DNA of 10,844 nt from an uncultured archaeon (GTDB lineage: Archaea; Asgardarchaeota; Lokiarchaeia; Sigyniarchaeales; SOKP01), in contig CAZOYD010000094.1 of the NCBI GenBank assembly GCA_964583985.1, positions 1 to 10,844 on the forward strand, in the 5' to 3' direction. The position numbers were made by a program, and so were the translations under genes. The notes below the pieces were generated by a model. It was not told the DNA's origin. It did not search any database and saw only the letters and a program-made list of their open reading frames with translations. Shown here one piece after another: positions 324 through 10,542 of this stretch; the first letter of the stretch is position 1; every line of letters starts with the position of its first letter.

Positions 324-1574
324 ATGTCTCACAAATCAAAATCTGTTTTAGTTATTGGTTTTAACACCAGACCTTTGGCTTTTTCTCTTTTCAATGCAGA
401 TTATGAAGTTTATGCTGTAGATTTCTTTGGAGACTTAGATCTTTATCCTCATGTTAAAGATTCAATTATTATTACCAAAGAATTAAACACGAATTATGAT
501 GTAATAAAGGATTATTATCATCATTACCTTGCTGAATTTGCAATTAAATTTTTAGATAAACATCCTAAAATTGATTTCTTAATTATTGGAAGCGGTTTAG
601 ACGATGCGTTCAATGAGAGAAATTTTATATTACAAGAAATTCGCAAAAGAAATAACAACATTCAGAGCATGAACAATGAGTTAGAAGTAGTAATGAATGC
701 CAGGAATATACGGGAAATTTTCGAAATATTAATTTCGAAAAACTATAAAGTTCCAGAGACCAAATATCCAAAAAATCTAGATGAAATCAAGAATTCTGAT
801 GAGTTCCCCTTTATTTTAAAAAAATTTCGGAGTTCAGGAGGAATAAATATCCATAAAATAGATGATAAAGAGGCACTCAGCTCAACTCTTAGAATAAATT
901 TTCCTAAAATGGATGATATTTCCGATTGGTTAGTACAAGAATACATTGAAGGAATTCCCGTGAGTTGTACAATAATCTCCGATGGAGTCCATGGTAAAGT
1001 TATCTCTATTAATCGTCAAATAATCGGAGAGAAGTACCTTAACACACCCAGAGATTTCATGTACTGTGGAAATGTTGTTCCTGCCCAGATTGGTGCTAAT
1101 ATTAAGAATACTATAATGGAAATCTCTCTAATGTTGTCAAAAACATTGAAACTTAGAGGGATTAATGGGTTTGATTTTGTAGTGAGGAATCACTATCCTT
1201 ATTTGATGGAAATAAATCCTAGAATACCTGGATCAATAAGTGCTTCAGAGCTCACGTTAAACATTAATTTATTAGACTTGCATGTTAAAAGTTTTAATTC
1301 AGAGAACTGGGAAGAAATAGAACGTGTATTGTCTAAGAGTAATTCAACTCAATTTGCAACCAAATTAATTTTCTTCGCTCCTAAGGAATTAAAAAAGCGG
1401 GATTTGATTAAAATTAACGATCTTGAATATATTCATGATAAGTCTGATCCCGATAGTCCTATTCAAAAATTTGATCCCGTTTGTACAATATTATTTGGAG
1501 CTCCTGACTTTGCAGCATCTTATTTTGGAGCTTTGAAAATTGTCGATAAGATTTACAAAATAATTTCAGAGTAA
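324..1574 (+). CDS. ATP-grasp domain protein, COG2232-like predicted ATP-dependent carboligase
   Basis: 416 aa. ATP-grasp motifs FPFILKK..SSGG.NI, WLVQEYIEGIPVSC, GINGFDFVV and LMEINPRIPGS are present. The N-terminus VLVIGFNTRPLAFS..ADYEVYAVDFFGDLDL is typical of the archaeal COG2232 group. Confidence 0.85.
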   Translation: MSHKSKSVLVIGFNTRPLAFSLFNADYEVYAVDFFGDLDLYPHVKDSIIITKELNTNYDVIKDYYHHYLAEFAIKFLDKHPKIDFLIIGSGLDDAFNERNFILQEIRKRNNNIQSMNNELEVVMNARNIREIFEILISKNYKVPETKYPKNLDEIKNSDEFPFILKKFRSSGGINIHKIDDKEALSSTLRINFPKMDDISDWLVQEYIEGIPVSCTIISDGVHGKVISINRQIIGEKYLNTPRDFMYCGNVVPAQIGANIKNTIMEISLMLSKTLKLRGINGFDFVVRNHYPYLMEINPRIPGSISASELTLNINLLDLHVKSFNSENWEEIERVLSKSNSTQFATKLIFFAPKELKKRDLIKINDLEYIHDKSDPDSPIQKFDPVCTILFGAPDFAASYFGALKIVDKIYKIISE

Positions 1575-1581
1575 GTCGGAG

Positions 1582-2316
1582 TTATTCAATAATCGCCTTT
1601 ATTTTTGCTATATAAGAACCAAGTTTACGTTCATCTGCTTCTGGTACGGCTATAGCAAGTATTCTGTTTTGATCTAATTCATGGATAATGATTGACCCGT
1701 TTTCTCCTCCTATTATTGAGTATTCCAAGCCTTCTTCCAATAAGATACCTGCTAAATTGTAAATCGCCGATGTCATGGCCGAAAGTATCGGTTCTGGCAT
1801 TGTAGTTTGCATTTTTATGGGCAAGCCATCTTTTGTAATAATAGCGATGACCAAAGCGTTTGGTATAGCTCTCTTTATGGCGACAAAGACGTCCTCTTTA
1901 ATTAAATCTGAAGTATCTATAATTGCTGAGATGGAAATGGCAAATTGTTTTAATAATTTAATAAAAGTATCCAATCCTTCAAGTTCAGCTAATTCTCGAT
2001 TTAAAAAGGATATTAAAGCAATGTTTTCTGTTAAGATTGATAAAATAATTCGTTTTTTTCCAGTAATCATATTATAGGAAATTTTTTGATTTAATGAATC
2101 TTGTAATATTTTAGAAGATAAGAAAACTAATGAACTGCTTGCCGCAGATATTTCAGTTTTTGTCATTGATATATCCTTTTTAAATTTACTAGCAAGATAT
2201 GTACCCCCATGAGTTGAAACACTTATTCCCAATATCGCGGCATTTGCATTTAATAATTTTTCAATCAGATCAACTAGATCGGTTTCTAAATCATCTATAT
2301 TTGATTGATTATTCAT
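1582..2316 (-). CDS. tandem (double) Roadblock/LC7 (MglB/LAMTOR2-like) domain protein
   Basis: 244 aa, two Roadblock-like units. Unit 1 (~aa 10-134): ILGISVSTHGGTYLAS...EISAASSSL...YNMITGKKRIIL...ISAIID. Unit 2 (~aa 138-244): ALVIAIITKDGLPI...ILSAMTSAIYNLA...YSIIGGENGSIIIHEL..RILAIAV...KLG...IKAIIE. 'TKDGLPI', 'LSAM' and 'GENG' match the Roadblock consensus. Confidence 0.85.
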   Translation of the reverse strand: MNNQSNIDDLETDLVDLIEKLLNANAAILGISVSTHGGTYLASKFKKDISMTKTEISAASSSLVFLSSKILQDSLNQKISYNMITGKKRIILSILTENIALISFLNRELAELEGLDTFIKLLKQFAISISAIIDTSDLIKEDVFVAIKRAIPNALVIAIITKDGLPIKMQTTMPEPILSAMTSAIYNLAGILLEEGLEYSIIGGENGSIIIHELDQNRILAIAVPEADERKLGSYIAKIKAIIE

Positions 2317-2337
2317 GAAATTATAATAACATTAATT

Positions 2338-2348
2338 AAATTTAAAAC
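2338..2348 (-). promoter_or_regulatory. candidate archaeal TATA box for the double-Roadblock gene (possibly leaderless mRNA)
   Basis: The minus strand reads GTTTTAAATTT about 22-32 nt upstream of the ATG at 2316, with no SD-like motif. AT-rich context makes this weak. Confidence 0.3.
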
Positions 2349-2416
2349 TATGGTAGATTAAATTAAGTTTAAAATCATGCTAAATTAGATTAAATTTACC
2401 TCAATAAAATAGAATT

Positions 2417-2436
2417 AAAAAGGAAATCTTATATTA
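2417..2436 (+). promoter_or_regulatory. candidate BRE + TATA box for the coiled-coil gene
   Basis: Purine-rich AAAAAGGAAA followed by TCTTATATTA about 50 nt upstream of ATG 2485. An alternative TTTTTAAG lies at 2456-2463. Confidence 0.3.
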
Positions 2437-2484
2437 TTATTCTTAATTTAGAGCATTTTTAAGATCGAAGAGACTGAATTTCAA

Positions 2485-3378
2485 ATGGAAGATAAAGACC
2501 AGATTATTGTTAATTTGCAAAAGGAATTAAATTCTACGAAACAAGAGATGGAAAAGGCTAAACTTCTTGAAATAAATGTAAAAACAAAAGATAAACTTAT
2601 TGAGAACTTACAAAATTCGATGGAATTAAAAGAGGACCAGATAAAAACGTTAAAGGATTCGATTAACTTAAAAACAGAACAGATTAAAACGCTCGATAGC
2701 TCATTGAAGATAAAAGATGAAAAAATTAAAACAATGGAAAGGACTTTGATGCTAAAAGAAGAGGAAATCAATGAACTTAGAGAAAGCACGATCGATAAGG
2801 ATGAAATACTTGAGAAAAATAAAATCATAGAAGATTTACAAGGGAAATTAGAGATCTTAAAAGGTGAATTAGATACAGCTGATCAAGATTTAGAAATTTT
2901 AGAGAATGAAAATGTAACGTTAAGAAATCAATTAGCAGCATCTTCTGGATCTAAAATTATTGACGCAACGAATTTGGTTATCCCTAAAAAGCTGATTTTA
3001 GAAAAAATGAAGGAAATCTTGATGAAAGCAGTTCATAACGTGACGATCGTGGTTCCAAATATTAAGGATTTACAAGAACTGACCCTTTATGAGGTTAGAT
3101 CTTCCGTGATTATTAAAGTATCTACCTCAATTGATATCACTTTAGAAGAAGATGCTGAAATTTTAGAGGAGTTAGAGAGTCTCGATAATATTACAATCCG
3201 GATGTTTGATTCTGAGGACAGATACGTAATTGATCGTGATAATGAAGAGCTACTTTTTTCTGTTATTGGAAAATCCGAAGATAATAATCTGGTAATTCAA
3301 ACAAGGGATTCAATGCATATAAATTTGCTCAAATATCTAAGCATGGAAGCTTGGCTTCGTTCAAGAAAGCTGGATTGA
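2485..3378 (+). CDS. coiled-coil protein with C-terminal PLD-like/TrmB-like alpha/beta domain lacking an HKD motif
   Basis: 297 aa. aa 1-~152 is a continuous E/K/L-rich heptad pattern, followed by an ASSGS linker. The rest, ILEKMKEILMKAVHNVTIVVP...VIIKVST...NITIRMF....YVIDRDNEELLFS...LVIQTRD..INLL....EAWLRSRKL, follows the PLD-fold/TrmB middle-domain pattern ('I..A...v.i..P', 'iD.ee.l', terminal W). CDS is secure; the fold call is moderate. Confidence 0.65.
   Translation: MEDKDQIIVNLQKELNSTKQEMEKAKLLEINVKTKDKLIENLQNSMELKEDQIKTLKDSINLKTEQIKTLDSSLKIKDEKIKTMERTLMLKEEEINELRESTIDKDEILEKNKIIEDLQGKLEILKGELDTADQDLEILENENVTLRNQLAASSGSKIIDATNLVIPKKLILEKMKEILMKAVHNVTIVVPNIKDLQELTLYEVRSSVIIKVSTSIDITLEEDAEILEELESLDNITIRMFDSEDRYVIDRDNEELLFSVIGKSEDNNLVIQTRDSMHINLLKYLSMEAWLRSRKLD
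2563..2814 (+). repeat. 42-bp / 14-aa degenerate tandem repeat (5 clear units plus 1 degenerate) within the coiled coil
   Basis: LLEINVKTKDKLIE / NLQNSMELKEDQIK / TLKDSINLKTEQIK / TLDSSLKIKDEKIK / TMERTLMLKEEEIN / ELRESTIDKDEILE, with K invariant at position 9. Visible in DNA, e.g. ttaaaagaggaccagataaaaacg vs ttaaaaacagaacagattaaaacg. Confidence 0.8.
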
Positions 3379-3382
3379 AATT

Positions 3383-4096
3383 TTAATGGAACAAACAATT
3401 TTCTTTTTCACATTTCTCATTTTTGTTTGAAAAATAGCACGATTTTGGTTGATAGTTTAGTTTAATATTGAAATTTTCTTCTAAGAAACGTAAAGTTTCG
3501 GAAATCGAGATTTTTACTGATCTTTTACAGCAATGTTCTAAGTTATCACCTATTTTTGATAAAGATCTGGAGGTCATTTGATTTGCTAAGGTTCGTTCTC
3601 TACCTTTAGAGGGATTAGCACCAGTGAAAATACTTATGGCAATTCCGGACCCCATTCCCGCTCCACAGGACCCATAAAATCCGCACCACCCCCCTGGAAT
3701 CTTAGAGGCACGCCTTATTGCCTCTTTAATATCAAAAAGGGTAATAGATTCCCCATTGGGCTTTTTAATATCATTATTTTTTAGTGCTGTCAGAATGACT
3801 GCTGGCGTAAGCACGTGGTGTTCAGGGCCATACATCTTGAATTTAGGGTGACGCATGATCTTTTCCGCTAAAATAAATGGGTCTTTGATATCTGTCGTTT
3901 CAGTTATATTTTCAATAATTTCCATAGCTCCGCTTTGATGGCAATTATCACAGATATAATGAAAATCTTCACAAAATGTGTTTGTGTTGAATATTTTTCC
4001 ACAAAATTCACATGTAAGGTCCTTATAGTCGCTAGGGATTATAGCATAAACTAAATCTTTACCACATATTTCACATTTATCCTTTTTATCATTCAT
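3383..4096 (-). CDS. Cys-rich DUF5714-like protein with N-terminal zinc-finger-like module
   Basis: 237 aa, 14 Cys. N-terminal C8xxC11-x17-C29xxC32-x9-C42xxxH46xxC49xxC52. Family motifs MYGPEHH, PGGWCGFYGSCGAGMG, CCKR and C-terminal C-x8-C-x4-C. Confidence 0.8.
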   Translation of the reverse strand: MNDKKDKCEICGKDLVYAIIPSDYKDLTCEFCGKIFNTNTFCEDFHYICDNCHQSGAMEIIENITETTDIKDPFILAEKIMRHPKFKMYGPEHHVLTPAVILTALKNNDIKKPNGESITLFDIKEAIRRASKIPGGWCGFYGSCGAGMGSGIAISIFTGANPSKGRERTLANQMTSRSLSKIGDNLEHCCKRSVKISISETLRFLEENFNIKLNYQPKSCYFSNKNEKCEKENCLFH

Positions 4097-4116: not shown

Positions 4117-4965
4117 TCATATTTTTATGTAACTTTTAACCATCTTGTCAAAATGAGTCAATCTCTTATAACCTATATTCTTCAATAATCTAATTGATGA
4201 TTTAAATTCATACCCTATTTCATTTGGATGATGAGCATCAGATCCCAATATAACATCAATACCTAAATTATACATTTCTTTAATTATCTCTTTGCTCGGA
4301 TATTGTTCTTTTATTGGTCTTCTTAATCCACTAGTATTAATTTCAATTACCACCTCCCGTTTTTTGGCCATTTCTAAAGTTTTAAATTCTTCTTCTATTA
4401 TGAGTTCTTTATTATTAGGAAGAATATTGAACTTTTTGGGAAGATCAAAATGACCTATCGTGGTGAAATTAAATCGATCAGAACTTATCATTGCTTGCAT
4501 GGTTTGAAAGTAATTAGTATAAATTTCATCCGTGTCTTCGAATTTGGTGTAATCTTTCAAAAAACGAAAATCATCGAATGCAAAAAGACCAAATGAAGTG
4601 TTTAAATTATGAATGGAACCAATTATATAATCTAATTGATCAGAATATCGTTCGAGATATTTACGATGTTTATCAACTTGTTTTTCTACAAAATCTAATT
4701 CGAAAGCAACTTTTACCGAAATTTGATTTTTATATTTTTCTCTCAGATTTATTGCATTAAAAATGTATGAGTCAAGTTCATCAATAGGCATTGAATATTC
4801 CTGATATGGCATGTTCTCAATTCCATCGAGAATCTCATATGGAAAGTGAGCGCTTAATCCAATTACGTTAAACTTTTTATTTATTGCTGCTGTCACATAT
4901 TGTTCAAGATTTCCAGTAGCGTGTCTACAAAATGAGCTATGAGTATGCCAATCTTCAAGATGCAT
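4117..4965 (-). CDS. hisK: PHP-family histidinol-phosphatase-like phosphoesterase (HisJ/HisK family)
   Basis: 282 aa. PHP metal-binding motifs DWHTHSSFCRHA, GLSAHFP, FELDF, DYIIGSIH, IGHFDLPKKF, IEINTSGLR..KEQYPS and LGSDAHHP. Family is clear; the substrate is inferred. Confidence 0.85.
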   Translation of the reverse strand: MHLEDWHTHSSFCRHATGNLEQYVTAAINKKFNVIGLSAHFPYEILDGIENMPYQEYSMPIDELDSYIFNAINLREKYKNQISVKVAFELDFVEKQVDKHRKYLERYSDQLDYIIGSIHNLNTSFGLFAFDDFRFLKDYTKFEDTDEIYTNYFQTMQAMISSDRFNFTTIGHFDLPKKFNILPNNKELIIEEEFKTLEMAKKREVVIEINTSGLRRPIKEQYPSKEIIKEMYNLGIDVILGSDAHHPNEIGYEFKSSIRLLKNIGYKRLTHFDKMVKSYIKI

Positions 4966-5058: not shown

Positions 5059-5448
5059 ATGGAATTCAAGAATAAGCAAAATGATGGACCATTTGAAATA
5101 GTGATGGTTGATTTGCAAATAGAGGATCAAGTATTTAGAGGAATCCTGTATTTTCATTCAAGTAATTTCAAACGACCTCATCCGATAATAGTATACTTTC
5201 ACGGTTTTCCTCAAATTACTCCTCTGCAAGAGATTGCAAGAAATTATCGTTATCTACTCGAAAAAGGGTATGCATTTTAATTATTTAATATTACGGGCTA
5301 TAATTTCAGCGATGGAACAATATCAATTAAAAATCAAGTTACTGATGCTTTGAGAATCATTGAGTTTTTGGAGTCAATGATATAAAAGCAAATAATTGTC
5401 GGGGATAATATTAATATTTCCAATCATTTTTTAACATCAAATGATTAG
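5059..5448 (+). pseudogene. decayed, truncated alpha/beta-hydrolase (peptidase S9/esterase-like)
   Basis: The 73-aa ORF contains HPIIVYFHGFP and ends GYAF-TAA (5278-5280). Reading through in frame gives LFNITGYNFSDGTISIKNQVTDALRIIEFLESMI-TAA(5383-5385)-KQIIVGDNINISNHFLTSND-TAG(5446-5448). This continues the hydrolase consensus (F.y.GyG.SeG......D.....fL.....I.i.GHS.G). The nucleophile elbow is degraded and the C-terminal half is absent. Confidence 0.8.
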
Positions 5449-5622: not shown

Positions 5623-8600
5623 TTGACCTCTACCGAAGAAATTTCAAAATTAAATTTTCAAGAATATATAAAAGATGGAAAATCATTAACTTTTTTGGTA
5701 GGTGCTGGGTGTTCCGTCTTGACACCATCAAACTTACCTAATGCAAGCGATTTGATTAAATCCATTTTAAAATTGACGATTATCGAATCTGAAGTTGATA
5801 AAATAGAATCTTTGGAGAATTTAACTCTTGAACAACTGTTAAGGATTATTTATTCAATCATTGATGAAAGTTCTGAAATTCTTGGCTTTTTTTCAGAGTG
5901 TGATAAGCCAAACATTGAACATTTTTTCTTAGCTGAAATGATCACCAAAGGTAGTTTTGTCATGTCAACGAACTTCGATCACCTTATTGAAACTGCGCTT
6001 CTAACCTTAAATGTCCCTCGGAAAAAAATTATCCCCGTCATAACTCAAAAAGATTATGAGAAGTACACAAATCCTGAAAAGTTATTTGAAAGTGGTAAAA
6101 TGGGCGTCTATAAAATTCATGGTGCTTCTAATAATCTAATTACTGGTGAGAATACTCAGGAATCGCTCATAATTACATTAAAATTAATAGGAACGAATCA
6201 AGAAGGACGAAATATTGTTCAATTAGAACCCCATAAAGCAGAATTTATAAGAAATGTATCAAGAGATAGGAATTTGATAGTATTGGGGTATTCTGGTATG
6301 AATGATTATGATATGACTCCTACAATTGAACAGATGGATTCATTAAAAAATTTGATATGGGTAAATCATGTTGAAGAAATAAAGGATGTTAATCAATTAA
6401 AAGAAATCAGAGATAATAACATTCAATCATTAAAAGATATTGATGAATTAGACCAGATATTATTGGACATTTCACGAGTAAATCATCACCTAAATATTTA
6501 CAGGTTAGATATCAATACCAGAATTCTTCTAAACGAGTTAATTGAGAGTACTGAGAATATTAGTAAAGAACCCAATGAATTAGATTTCTCAAGGTGGATA
6601 AAAGAATCTATTAAAGAACTCTCCAATGAAGAAAAATTATTCATTCCACTTAAGATATATCATGAAAATAAACAATATAATGATGCTTTAAGATGTTTAG
6701 AAAGAATTTATAGATTAGCTGAGGATAGTGGAGATGAAAAATGGAAGACAATTTCATTAATGAATATGGGTATCATCAACTTAGAACAAAATGAACTCGA
6801 AAAAGCTTTGGAATGGTTTAAAAAAGCTCTTCAATCCCAAATTAAATTAAAAACATTTCCTGAAAGAATTTCAATTTTTAAGAATATTGGGCTAATATAC
6901 CAAGCTCAAGGAAATTTGGTAGAAGCATATAATTTTTTTCAACAAGGATTGAAAATTAATATAAAATACAAAGATATGAAGACCGAATCCGAATTGTATA
7001 ATCAAATAGGTCTATTAGAACTAAATCGTTCTAACTATAAAGAAGCTATTAAAAATTTTGATATCTCGTTAAAAATAGATGAAAAATTGAATAATTTGCA
7101 AGAAAAAGCATTTAAACTTAAAAATATTGCAGCTACTCACGTCAAAAGCAGAAATCTTTCTGCTGCATTAAACGATTTGGATGAAGCAATGGAAATAAAC
7201 GATACACTTGGAAATCTGATTGAAAAAGGAAATATACTCAATAATTTGGGGTTGATTCATCATATTGGAGGAAATTCAATTTTAGGGATTGAAAAATGCA
7301 ATAAAGCACTAGATATATTTATCCAAATGCAATTTATTGAAGGAAAAATGGATGTTTTAAATAATCTGGGAGAAATCTATAGAGATCAATGGAATTATCC
7401 AAGATCTTATGAATATTTCAAAGAAGCAGTTCAATTAGCAGAAGATTATGGTAATATTGAAAAACAAGCGAAATTTTCAACCCAAATTGGAATCATTTTT
7501 CGAAACCAAGATAAATATTTCGAAGCACTCCAATGGCTTGAAACGGGTCTAAATCTTTTTAATCAGATTGGCAATCTCCGCGGAAAAATAGAAACTTTAA
7601 AAAATATAGGATTAATATACAAGAAACAACGAAATTATACTAAAGCTTTAAGGCGTCTTGAAAAAGTTTTAGAAATTTATCAGCGTTTGAATGATACTCA
7701 AGGAATTGCGACTTTTCTCAATATTATTGGATTAATTTATGTAGACCAAAGAAATTTCAGTAAAGCTTTAGAATATTTTCAACAAGCTCTTGATATTAGC
7801 AGCGAAATTGAAAGCTCGGAAGGAAGTGCTGAAACGCTTAAAAATATAGGCTCATTTTATCAAGAACAAGCGAATTATTCTGAGGCTGAAAAAAGATACA
7901 ATGCGGCATTGGAAATATTAGATAGATTGGGAGATCCAGAAAAAAAAGCAGATATTTTGAATAAAATCGGAACTATATATCAAAATTATGGAAGATATGA
8001 TGATGCAAAGAAAATGTTTGACGAATCCTTTGAAATATTTAAAAATGAACTCAATTATGATGGAAAAATTGATGTATTGTATAATATTGGCTTGAATTAT
8101 CAATATCAAGGCGATGATAAATTAGCTTTAGAAAATTTCGAAGCAGCAGTTCAGATTACTGATCAAATTGGAAATTTGCAAAGAAAACTTGAATGTCTTA
8201 AAGCCATGGGCGAGATATCCAGAGAACAATGGGATTTTATAGAAGCATTAAGGAGATATGAAGAAAGCTTAGTGATAGCGGAAAATTTAGGTAATTTAGA
8301 GGAACAGATAAACATTTTAAAAATAATTGCCGAGATATATCAAGCTCAAAAACATTATCCTGAATCAATTAGACGCTTTCAAGATGCTCTTAATGTTGTT
8401 GAGAAATTAGGCAATCTTGAAGGAAAAGCTAACATTTTCAACAGTATTGGCATTATATATTACGAAGAGGAAGACTTTCCTCAAGCTTTAAATTGGTTCG
8501 AAAAAGCTCTTGAAATTGATGAAGAATTGGGAGATATAAAAGGCAAAGCAGAGCGTTTTTTGAATATTGGAAGCATTTATCTTATTTGGGATGAGTATGA

Positions 8601-9687
8601 TGAGGTTTTACAAAAATACAAAAAAGCTCTTGAGATTAAGGAACAAATTGGAGATCTTGCAGGACAAGCTAGTACTCTTAGAAAAATAGGTATGATTTAT
8701 CACAATCAAAATGATTTAGAGGAAGCTTTTAATTGGTACAGTAAATCTTTAAAATTGTTTGAAGAGATAGAGCGTGTTCAAGGTATATGTGATTGTTATG
8801 AAAGTTTAGGCAAGTTAAATAAGGATCAAGGTGATTATTCACAAGCATTATCTCTTTTCCAGCAATCACTAAAAATTGCTGACGAGAATGATGATCTAGA
8901 ACGAAGAGGTTTTCTTTATAATGAACTCGGTGCTATTTATCAATACCAAGGAATGTATAAAGATGCATTGAAGAAATTCAAACAGGCACTTGACATTTTT
9001 GATCAAACCGGAGATTTAATGGGTAAAACATACAGTCTCAATAAAATCGGCCAAACTTACCAAGAACAAGGGAATTACGATGATGCCTTGAACTGGTATG
9101 ATCGTTCAATCAAATTATTTAAATTTCTTGGAGAGTCAGAAGAAAAATCAAAAGCTTATTATAATACTGCGATGATCTATCGTGATAAAGGTAAATATCT
9201 TGATGCCTTGAAGAATTTTGAGGAAGTTCTTAAAATAGAAATTGATGTTTATAATTTAAAAAGAAAAGCAGATAGTTTGAACAATATCGGACTAATATAC
9301 TTAGCTGAAGCAAACTATCCTGTTGCCATAGAAAGATTTAAAGAAGCTATTCAAATTGCTGATGAATTAGAAGAATTGGATACTAAAGGAACCATCTTGA
9401 ATAATTTATCACTTGTATATCTAAATAAGGGAGATTATACTGAAGCTTGGAAATCCTCTAATAAAGCTCTTGAAATATTCGAACTACTTAAAAATTACGA
9501 AGGAATTGCTGATACGCATTATAAATTGGGACTTACTTACTTAGATCAAAAAAGTTATACGGAAGCTCTTAATAAACATGAAGAAGCGCTTGAAGCTCTT
9601 TCTAAAGTTAGTAAAAATTATACCAAGCTCCCCTTAGCAAAGGTACTTAAAAACAATATCAAATTGATTAAATCTTATCAAAGCTAA
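5623..9687 (+). CDS. SIR2-like (SIR2_2-type, putative NADase) domain fused to 25 TPR-like repeats
   Basis: 1354 aa, TTG start (in-frame TAG at 5608-5610 and no ATG before the first motif). SIR2 motifs FLVGAGCS (G27, 5701), STNFDHLIE (N117, 5971), YKIHG (H166, 6118) and LIVLGYSG (G222, 6286). No zinc-ribbon CxxC pairs and no Walker A. aa 336-1335 form a TPR-like array. Confidence 0.9.
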   Translation: MTSTEEISKLNFQEYIKDGKSLTFLVGAGCSVLTPSNLPNASDLIKSILKLTIIESEVDKIESLENLTLEQLLRIIYSIIDESSEILGFFSECDKPNIEHFFLAEMITKGSFVMSTNFDHLIETALLTLNVPRKKIIPVITQKDYEKYTNPEKLFESGKMGVYKIHGASNNLITGENTQESLIITLKLIGTNQEGRNIVQLEPHKAEFIRNVSRDRNLIVLGYSGMNDYDMTPTIEQMDSLKNLIWVNHVEEIKDVNQLKEIRDNNIQSLKDIDELDQILLDISRVNHHLNIYRLDINTRILLNELIESTENISKEPNELDFSRWIKESIKELSNEEKLFIPLKIYHENKQYNDALRCLERIYRLAEDSGDEKWKTISLMNMGIINLEQNELEKALEWFKKALQSQIKLKTFPERISIFKNIGLIYQAQGNLVEAYNFFQQGLKINIKYKDMKTESELYNQIGLLELNRSNYKEAIKNFDISLKIDEKLNNLQEKAFKLKNIAATHVKSRNLSAALNDLDEAMEINDTLGNLIEKGNILNNLGLIHHIGGNSILGIEKCNKALDIFIQMQFIEGKMDVLNNLGEIYRDQWNYPRSYEYFKEAVQLAEDYGNIEKQAKFSTQIGIIFRNQDKYFEALQWLETGLNLFNQIGNLRGKIETLKNIGLIYKKQRNYTKALRRLEKVLEIYQRLNDTQGIATFLNIIGLIYVDQRNFSKALEYFQQALDISSEIESSEGSAETLKNIGSFYQEQANYSEAEKRYNAALEILDRLGDPEKKADILNKIGTIYQNYGRYDDAKKMFDESFEIFKNELNYDGKIDVLYNIGLNYQYQGDDKLALENFEAAVQITDQIGNLQRKLECLKAMGEISREQWDFIEALRRYEESLVIAENLGNLEEQINILKIIAEIYQAQKHYPESIRRFQDALNVVEKLGNLEGKANIFNSIGIIYYEEEDFPQALNWFEKALEIDEELGDIKGKAERFLNIGSIYLIWDEYDEVLQKYKKALEIKEQIGDLAGQASTLRKIGMIYHNQNDLEEAFNWYSKSLKLFEEIERVQGICDCYESLGKLNKDQGDYSQALSLFQQSLKIADENDDLERRGFLYNELGAIYQYQGMYKDALKKFKQALDIFDQTGDLMGKTYSLNKIGQTYQEQGNYDDALNWYDRSIKLFKFLGESEEKSKAYYNTAMIYRDKGKYLDALKNFEEVLKIEIDVYNLKRKADSLNNIGLIYLAEANYPVAIERFKEAIQIADELEELDTKGTILNNLSLVYLNKGDYTEAWKSSNKALEIFELLKNYEGIADTHYKLGLTYLDQKSYTEALNKHEEALEALSKVSKNYTKLPLAKVLKNNIKLIKSYQS
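6628..9627 (+). repeat. 25 x 120-bp (40-aa) TPR-like tandem repeats
   Basis: Hand alignment: 3000 bp from EEKLFIPLKIY to SKVSKNYTK splits into 25 units of 40 aa without gaps. Consensus approx. A..LnNIG.IY..QgnY.eAL..f..ALeI.e.lgnl.gk. Confidence 0.9.
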
Positions 9688-9714: not shown

Positions 9715-10542
9715 TTACGCGAGTAGTTCTATTTCAGAATGAGTCTTTTTTTTTCTTATTTTTATGGCTAAATATGGAAAGACCTCAGCATACAAGATAT
9801 AGAGGTATGGTGCACCCTGATTAAACATTAGGATTGTATCGTAAAGTAAGAAAGATATGCCTGAAGGACGTATTCCTGAAATGAATAACGGAAATTCCAT
9901 GAAAAAAGCTCCAAGGCATCCTATGAGAAATACGAAACCTATTAATTTTAAATCCCGTTTCCTAAATTTACCAGTACCATAAATTAAAAAAAGCAAAAAA
10001 TATCCAACAATAATATTTATGGTCCACGTTATCATCTGAGTATCCATGTGCCTAATTGAAATAACTAAAGTATCGTCAAGGTGAATTAAATATGAAAGAA
10101 AGGGCGTAACCAACCAAAATCCAAAAATCATGCCTGTAAAAAGGAGTATTTCTTTATAATTCCTTTTAACATAATTTTCAAACATTATCCATAACCAACC
10201 AAACGCAAAAAGGGAATATGAAAAAGTCATCATGAAATCTGTTCCAAATTTCGGCCAGAAATAGACTCCTAACGATTGTGGAACCTTTACTCCTCCGATC
10301 CAATATTCGCGAATCATAGTTCCAATAGGATAATTAGATCCCGCTGGTGAATTCCACCATATTATAGCATCAATAAAATATGTGACAAATCCAGTAAAAA
10401 TTCCAAACTTAATCGCATTGCCCTTTTTATATTTTATAAGGAATCCCACCCATATAGCAAGAAAAATACTGTCAATATAGATATAATCATATTCAAATCT
10501 TCTTATTGCTTCATTGAACGATTCATAAACAGCATTTAGCAT
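9715..10542 (-). CDS. hypothetical polytopic membrane protein (~7 TM helices)
   Basis: 275 aa with about 7 hydrophobic aromatic/Gly-rich segments separated by basic loops (KYKK, KRNYK, KFRKR) and a basic C-terminal tail. No family recognised with confidence. Confidence 0.75.
   Translation of the reverse strand: MLNAVYESFNEAIRRFEYDYIYIDSIFLAIWVGFLIKYKKGNAIKFGIFTGFVTYFIDAIIWWNSPAGSNYPIGTMIREYWIGGVKVPQSLGVYFWPKFGTDFMMTFSYSLFAFGWLWIMFENYVKRNYKEILLFTGMIFGFWLVTPFLSYLIHLDDTLVISIRHMDTQMITWTINIIVGYFLLFLIYGTGKFRKRDLKLIGFVFLIGCLGAFFMEFPLFISGIRPSGISFLLYDTILMFNQGAPYLYILYAEVFPYLAIKIRKKKTHSEIELLA

Follow-up and report, generated by a model that had tools for sequence, protein, structure and literature searches.

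The window analysed here is the whole 10,844-bp contig CAZOYD010000094.1, part of the 3.8-Mb genome (~30% GC) of an uncultured Asgard archaeon of the order Sigyniarchaeales; the names carried by homologues likewise point to Promethearchaeota/Lokiarchaeia. It carries a gene in which an intact, zinc-less SIR2 domain of the type found in NAD+-degrading enzymes (NADases) is joined directly to an array of 25 tetratricopeptide repeats (TPRs). SIR2 NADases are mobile and patchily distributed antiviral effectors in bacteria, and are also found as conserved genes, e.g., FAM118, in animals. In the present case, a NADase-type SIR2 placed on a 25-TPR array behaves as a core, vertically inherited Asgard gene. 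The explanation that we favour, and to which we give an even chance of being right, is that the gene, inherited vertically, specifies an NAD+ hydrolase whose activity is gated, within one and the same chain, by the TPR array. The initial annotation, made from the sequence alone, had proposed an immune sensor-effector, with a non-defence signalling role as the alternative.

Should the head prove to be an active NADase, the prokaryotes most closely related to eukaryotes would have domesticated a switch that destroys NAD+ as a fixed part of the cell, which would bear on how the SARM1, NLR and SIRim types of death and immune signalling arose in eukaryotes. If the head modifies proteins instead, it would represent a new class of enzymes similar to O-GlcNAc transferase (OGT). 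Moreover, the protein offers a clean single-chain model of a TPR superhelix gating an enzyme without a nucleoside triphosphatase (NTPase) module.

A SIR2 head on an array of 25 repeats

The gene (5623..9687, +) is the sole long open reading frame (ORF) in its stretch and is intact, with 1,354 amino acids (aa) followed by a stop codon. Its start codon is TTG, at a position where the aligned orthologues carry ATG; the first internal methionine is M106, and the TTG start was accepted because a start at M106 would remove the GAGxS motif, i.e., the NAD loop. The N-terminal module (aa 1-340; 5623..6642, +) comprises a SIRim-type SIR2 Rossmann domain (approximately aa 10-310) and a helical linker (~320-340) that leads onto the first TPR. 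It is followed by 25 TPR units of exactly 40 aa each (aa 341-1340; 6643..9642, +), of the LGN/Pins/kinesin light chain (KLC) type, and by a 14-aa C-terminal tail with the stop codon (9643..9687, +), which leaves no space for another domain.

Regular-expression searches of the translation placed the four motifs of the initial annotation at the very residues where it had read them. These are GAGCS, the NAD-binding glycine loop of GAGxS type (aa 27-31; 5701..5715, +); TNFD, with the catalytic-type Asn117 (aa 116-119; 5968..5979, +), which aligns with the TTNFD of SPARSA Sir2 and FAM118B; KIHG, with the catalytic-type His166 (aa 164-167; 6112..6123, +); and GYSG (aa 222-225; 6286..6297, +). N117 and H166, as well as G27, A28, G29, S31, G222, Y223 and S224, are invariant in 21 aligned orthologues (that of the window and 20 others), while 38 diverse relatives all share N117, F118, D119, K164 and H166, the last two being invariant in both alignments of relatives (A1 and A2). 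The same searches found neither a CxxC (there are seven cysteines in all, two of them in the head) nor a Walker A motif, [GA]xxxxGK[ST], in the translation, and Pfam matched no NACHT, NB-ARC or AAA domain in the protein. The absence of a zinc-binding CxxC and of a P-loop, and the direct fusion of the head to the TPRs without a STAND module, are thus as first described.

The head matches Pfam SIR2_2 (PF13289), the family put forward at the outset, over aa 113-234 with 31.3 bits, above the gathering score of 24.5. The classical sirtuin family PF02146 is not among the Pfam matches of the protein, and the NCBIfam deacylase model NF001752 gives 17.4 bits, far below its cut-off of 221. An AlphaFold 2 model of the head (predicted local distance difference test, pLDDT, 86; predicted template modelling score, pTM, 0.89) was used for structural comparison, in which the best 43 matches were all NADase-type SIR2s, ahead of SIRT3 (score 13.7). 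SPARSA SIR2-APAZ reached 20.9 (261 aa, 3.2 Å), SeThsA 18.7, DSR2 17.6, KomC 17.3, SIR2-HerA 15.4, FAM118B 15.0 and Avs5 ~14. The zinc-less NADase type that had been read from the motifs is therefore borne out by a fold nearest to those of SPARSA SIR2-APAZ, ThsA, DSR2, KomC and SIR2-HerA, and the likeness to DSR2 and ThsA that was initially anticipated is apparent in these scores.

At the level of profiles, a head-only profile (A2) replaced a first one (A1), whose TPR tails drew mostly TPR structures. It reached SPARSA Sir2 (E = 2e-5), the alignment matching the GAGxS, NxxH...TTNFD and GYSG blocks, and next, weakly, FAM118B, ThsA, KomC and Sir2Tm; a phmmer search with aa 1-340 against PDB sequences returned nothing even at E <= 10. 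A homodimer prediction with two copies of the SIR2 head (A2) scored 0.02 and is not used as evidence either way. The head is an intact, zinc-less, NADase-type SIR2, of the branch that has been named SIRim (10.1101/2024.09.18.613514), and from its fold and motifs we infer that it would hydrolyse NAD+.

Regarding the array, lag 40 is the only one at which aa 341-1354 show a positive BLOSUM autocorrelation, and aa 341-1340, printed in rows of 40, fall into 25 units with zero indels. Together with the match to Pfam TPR_12 (E = 6.9e-141), this confirms the number and the nature of the repeats counted in the first inspection. The repeat consensus G3, Y6, A15, F19, A22 is the TPR signature (G8, Y11, A20, F24, A27) shifted by 5, and the array follows the TPR_12, LGN/KLC subtype pattern, with its period of 40-42 aa; its profile matches include GPSM2 (E = 1e-34), KLC, OGT and SPINDLY. 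A model of aa 1-760 (pLDDT 91.7, pTM 0.86) suggests a rigid seating of the head on the first repeats. In its repeat part, this model matches KLC1/2 at 21-23 and also the bacterial BtubC, and, more loosely, Rap phosphatases and OGT. Among the matches listed for it, no solved PDB chain spans both the SIR2 and the TPR parts, which does not show the architecture to be structurally new, and no DSR2 match covers the repeat part, an absence from the list that does not count against a sensor of the DSR2 type; by sequence, this region is canonical TPR.

Inheritance of the gene, its neighbours and its family

The head was searched against 40 related genomes, 23 of them of the same genus. The long form occurs in 22 of these 23, as one open frame each of ~1,351-1,414 aa (one is cut by a contig end), and the remaining genome, which is 86% complete, holds shorter forms only. 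A scan of the phylum added five further genomes of the genus, of which four have the long form and the fifth a form interrupted at the end of its contig. In all the same-genus loci fetched (22/22), the SIR2-TPR gene keeps its place in the same gene order, i.e., orf80, ATP-grasp, Roadblock/LC7, coiled-coil, a variable DUF5714 and PHP, then the SIR2-TPR gene, on which the gene for a 275-aa protein converges. The orthologues are 1,341-1,354 aa long, save for one of 1,387 aa and one truncated by its contig, and their alignment is practically gapless across the 1,000-aa array.

Within the genus, the SIR2-TPR protein is 44-81% identical (~50% for most orthologues), next to 46-82% for the PHP protein, 51-78% for ATP-grasp and 52-80% for the coiled-coil protein. 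Against the two closest relatives, the whole-gene ratio of non-synonymous to synonymous substitution rates (dN/dS) is 0.135 and 0.114, with 0.17-0.18 for the SIR2 head and 0.10-0.12 for the TPRs, similar to the 0.08-0.17 of the flanking genes; both head and array are under strong purifying selection, to an equal degree. Furthermore, the mean column entropy across orthologues is 0.95 in the array and 1.08 in the head, and helix A contains many repeat-specific residues that do not vary among the orthologues, above all in repeats 14-17 and 20-25. The SIR2-TPR gene is a vertically inherited core gene of the genus. The patchy spread, variable locus and defence or mobile neighbours of a defence-island gene were not found at these loci, whose synteny is complete and whose neighbours are housekeeping-like. 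Since the gene is single-copy, syntenic and of fixed length across the genus, and under purifying selection like that of its neighbours, the gene shows the very pattern that the initial annotation had named as speaking against defence; its defence reading loses ground and a non-defence, fixed signalling role, its own alternative, gains weight.

In the sister genus (three loci, L042-L044), the same locus holds a form of 1,201-1,206 aa, 37-40% identical, which aligns to aa 1-1,173 of the window's protein only; as judged from this alignment, its array appears to end about four repeats earlier. In the window's genus, by contrast, the last repeats rank with the best conserved ones. Two proteins of similar length from other families of the order, in G032 (a 1,350-aa open frame) and G026 (1,274 aa), were set aside as distant paralogues, with 25-32% identity and none of the window's neighbours nearby.

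As for the other genes of the window, Pfam matched only ATP-grasp_3, Roadblock/LC7, a weak coiled-coil, DUF5714 and PHP among their ORFs, two of which have no match at all. No TIR/ThsB, HerA or PIWI domain was found among them, in line with the earlier statement that the window contains no ThsB, HerA or pAgo partner. Three of these genes form a trio at 324-3378, encoding ATP-grasp_3 (416 aa), Roadblock/LC7 (244 aa, with the domain at the C-terminus) and coiled-coil (297 aa) proteins, whose order is kept across two genera. Conservation within the trio is highest for the Roadblock/LC7 protein (65-90% identity), and the three together could be an Asgard module of the GTPase-regulator or cytoskeleton type. 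The DUF5714 gene (3383-4096, -) is a variable insert in this otherwise fixed order: tblastn against 25 other syntenic loci found it complete in four (L015, L018, L028 and L034) and partial in two, one cut by the contig end (L017) and the other a 44-aa piece (L025). The PHP-domain phosphoesterase (4117..4965, -), a conserved divergent upstream neighbour, is considered as context only.

Directly upstream of the SIR2-TPR gene, and co-directional with it, lies the decayed remnant of an alpha/beta-hydrolase gene (Abhydrolase_1; 5059..5427, +), which retains ~95 of 242 codons and has an in-frame stop. Of 25 syntenic loci, 15 match this gene over almost its entire length, one has a contig-cut fragment and eight gave no match, so that an essential functional coupling to it was ruled out. 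Downstream, the convergent gene (9715..10542, -) encodes the 275-aa protein, which has no Pfam or NCBIfam match and is 57-85% identical across the genus. It was found in 14 of 22 same-genus loci tested; of the other eight, three have a contig that stops within the SIR2-TPR gene or immediately behind it, and in five the 2-8 kb that follow do not contain it. At the sister-genus loci it has no match.

Beyond this locus, the 340-aa head recurs in 1,439 clusters at 50% identity with E <= 1e-3 (307 at E < 1e-30), and the total length of the 150 best head matches ranges from 198 to 3,154 aa. The head was found in 40 of 200 sampled genomes of the phylum, all but two in the window's order, to which the SIR2-TPR family, with several conserved orthologous groups, is confined. 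There are 1-14 family copies per genome, and their tails are either TPRs in variable number, giving proteins of ~600-1,700 aa, or, by some swaps, leucine-rich repeats (LRRs). The genome of the window has three SIR2-TPR copies. Its 40-aa repeat occurs in only 13 ORFs, the three longest arrays being those of the three SIR2-TPR proteins, and a large, NLR-like repertoire of TPR effectors was rejected on this count.

One of the paralogues, of 813 aa (contig C17, L039:8021-10459, -) and ~10-11 repeats, represents a second conserved orthologous group, with 57-70% identity over ~805 aa in most of eight further genomes from several genera. This group is not syntenic, yet its sequence is more conserved than that of the 25-repeat form; the neighbours of the 813-aa paralogue are heliorhodopsin, aldo-keto reductase, ferredoxin, ornithine decarboxylase and MFS genes. 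Other members are more inventive. As read from gene calls, in which fusion artefacts may occur, five relatives (P0012, P0066, P0021, P0069 and P0103) are fused to TBP, UQ_con (E2), EF-G IV and C, DUF4062 or LRRs, and the fused TBP, E2, EF-G and similar domains could be integrated decoys or substrates. DUF4062 is reported as an NADase domain in the abstract of a 2026 preprint (10.64898/2026.09.04.749371), and the one relative that also carries it speaks for an NAD theme in the family. Conversely, a 1,319-aa paralogue of another genus (L045, G224:C32) has H166 replaced by Tyr and G29 by Asp, substitutions that probably render it catalytically dead. In this family, conserved core members thus stand beside others that are restricted to particular lineages and varied in architecture, and the census of homologues foreseen at the outset gives a divided answer: the 25-repeat orthologue is fixed and syntenic, while the wider family varies in copy number and length.

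A proposed gated NAD+ hydrolase and its alternatives

In the explanation that we favour, the TPR superhelix would bind at least one conserved protein ligand, probably as extended peptide segments accommodated by its groove, in the manner of LGN, KLC and OGT. Occupancy by this ligand, or its loss, would change the oligomerisation or the conformation of the SIR2 head, and the head would then cleave NAD+, so that the NAD+ pool of the cell would fall and growth arrest, dormancy or death would follow. Such a switch might serve fixed immunity, stress-induced dormancy or regulation. Its logic would resemble that of DSR2 and SARM1, applied to a conserved rather than a fast-evolving trigger. Indeed, because the sensor surface is conserved and not diversifying, the trigger is more likely to be endogenous or slowly evolving than a fast-evolving viral protein; candidates are a host protein under guard, a peptide that stress exposes and a viral component that is conserved.

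Several points weigh against this explanation. The NADase activity of the family is read only from fold and motifs, and both the TPR ligand and the oligomerisation of the head are hypothetical. A constitutively retained suicide enzyme would be unusual for a prokaryote, and the strong purifying selection on the TPR surface is just as compatible with a scaffold that recruits substrates. Furthermore, in the sister genus the neighbouring genes are 49-75% identical, i.e., the SIR2-TPR gene has diverged faster than they have, and its form there, ~150 aa shorter, indicates that the array is not immutable.

A broader proposal can be derived from the same data, although we regard it as rather speculative and probably not correct as a whole. 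According to it, Loki-type Asgards would possess SARM1-like, fixed SIR2-TPR NADases, acting as STAND-less, vertically inherited, cell-autonomous switches for death or dormancy, which would guard conserved host proteins through the TPR groove and, in paralogues, through TBP, E2 and EF-G decoys. They would then amount to a set of innate-immune or stress receptors in the archaea nearest to eukaryotes.

Among the alternatives, a classical sensor-effector of abortive infection, in the manner of DSR2, would have the TPRs bind a structural protein of an Asgard virus and unleash the NADase, with the death of the infected cell. The proximity of the head fold to those of defence NADases speaks for it, as do the copy numbers and variable tails of the wider family, and the host-like TBP, E2 and EF-G domains of the relatives could be its integrated decoys. 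Nevertheless, the orthologue itself is single-copy, syntenic and of fixed length, with a dN/dS of ~0.12 and a TPR surface that is not hypervariable; ATP-grasp, Roadblock, PHP and DUF5714 genes do not make a defence island, and a second paralogue of the genome also lies amid metabolic genes. Moreover, PADLOC gave no match to DSR1, DSR2, ThsA or HerA-SIR2 at E <= 0.01, and returned only generic TPR models with weak PDC-S65, PDC-S39 and Aga_SIR2 matches, so that the known SIR2 defence systems for which the initial annotation would have looked are not matched. We consider this alternative unlikely for the 25-repeat gene.

Equally doubtful is a housekeeping regulator in which the head would act as an NAD+-dependent protein modifier (a mono-ADP-ribosyltransferase or an atypical deacylase) and the TPRs would recruit or thread clients, as they do in OGT. 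The core-gene behaviour and the conserved, repeat-specific surfaces are what such an enzyme would be expected to present. Its TPRs resemble the arrays of OGT and SPINDLY as well as that of LGN, the structural model has head and array rigidly joined, and the EF-G IV and C, TBP and E2 fusions of the relatives could be substrates. However, the SIRim proteins studied so far are known for the hydrolysis or processing of NAD+ and not for protein modification. The solved relatives with a stated activity are likewise NAD+ hydrolases (ThsA, 'NAD(+) hydrolase'; KomC, 'NADase'), the zinc module of sirtuins is absent, and the score against the deacylase model is, as seen above, far from its cut-off.

Finally, a non-catalytic scaffold or NAD+-sensing adaptor, whose head would bind NAD+ or a nucleotide signal while the array organises a complex, is improbable, for the invariance of GAGxS, N117, D119, H166 and GYSG across ~50% divergence is unexpected for binding only, even if the great length, rigidity and conservation of the TPR array would suit a scaffold of the LGN or KLC kind and the H166Y change of one distant paralogue implies that non-catalytic versions of the family exist.

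Relation to known SIR2 and TPR systems

The proposed NAD+ hydrolase gated by its TPR array can finally be set beside the systems that it most resembles. DSR2 is a sporadic, mobile defence gene, whereas the window's gene is a syntenic core gene. In both, a single chain carries a zinc-less SIR2 followed by helical repeats, without an NTPase (DSR2 of Bacillus subtilis; PDB 8wyb, 8wkt and 8z18), but the C-terminal part of DSR2 is not a TPR array, and that of the window's protein consists of 25 regular 40-aa TPRs of the LGN/KLC type. Compared with SPARSA SIR2-APAZ (PDB 8y80, 8jkz), the protein lacks APAZ, and no pAgo/PIWI gene is found on the 10.8-kb contig; regulation by TPRs would here take the place of regulation by guide and target nucleic acids. 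Compared with ThsA, a SIR2-SLOG protein (PDB 7uxt, 8bto and 6lhx), it lacks SLOG/Macro, and the window contains no ThsB/TIR gene. Avs5 and the SIR2-STAND proteins (PDB 9jap, 9nc9), which are SIR2-NLR-like, also combine a SIR2 effector with a TPR-type sensor in one chain, but they have a STAND NTPase, which the window's protein does not.

Direct SIR2-TPR fusions without STAND have been described in the bacterial conflict system of the effector-TPR-GreA/B-C-PIN type, in which any of 13 effectors, SIR2 among them, can occupy the N-terminus (Kaur et al., 2021; PMC8195603). That system has GreA/B-C and PIN domains and is described as rapidly evolving, whereas the window's protein is TPR to 14 residues from its end and its gene is conserved. 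The protein lies outside DSR1/2 (as represented by the PADLOC models), ThsA, SPARSA, SIR2-HerA, Avs5/STAND and the Kaur system. On the side of TPR proteins without an enzyme head, LGN/GPSM2-Pins and KLC have 6-8 repeats, as against 25 behind a SIR2 in the window.

In eukaryotes, SIRim domains fused to TPR-like or NACHT domains have been reported, as well as FAM118A/B, termed 'SIRanc' (10.1101/2024.09.18.613514). The TPR-like fusion is shared with the window's protein, a likeness of architecture for which no kinship of clades is claimed. Since SIR2-TPR fusions appear in both of these works, the novelty hoped for in the initial annotation is lower. On the other hand, a survey of Asgard defence systems mentions neither SIR2 nor TPR (PMC11291487), and a literature search found no paper joining SIR2, TPR and Lokiarchaeota. 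What is added here to the fusions already described, whether direct SIR2-TPR or eukaryotic SIRim-TPR, is the status of core gene.

In this last respect, the comparison extends to SARM1, in which a conserved, chromosomally fixed enzyme of NADase type is likewise combined with a helical-repeat regulator. SARM1 is a conserved, fixed NADase whose catalytic domain is a TIR and not a SIR2. By analogy, the window's protein would be most like DSR2 in its function, and most like SARM1 or FAM118 in its evolutionary behaviour.

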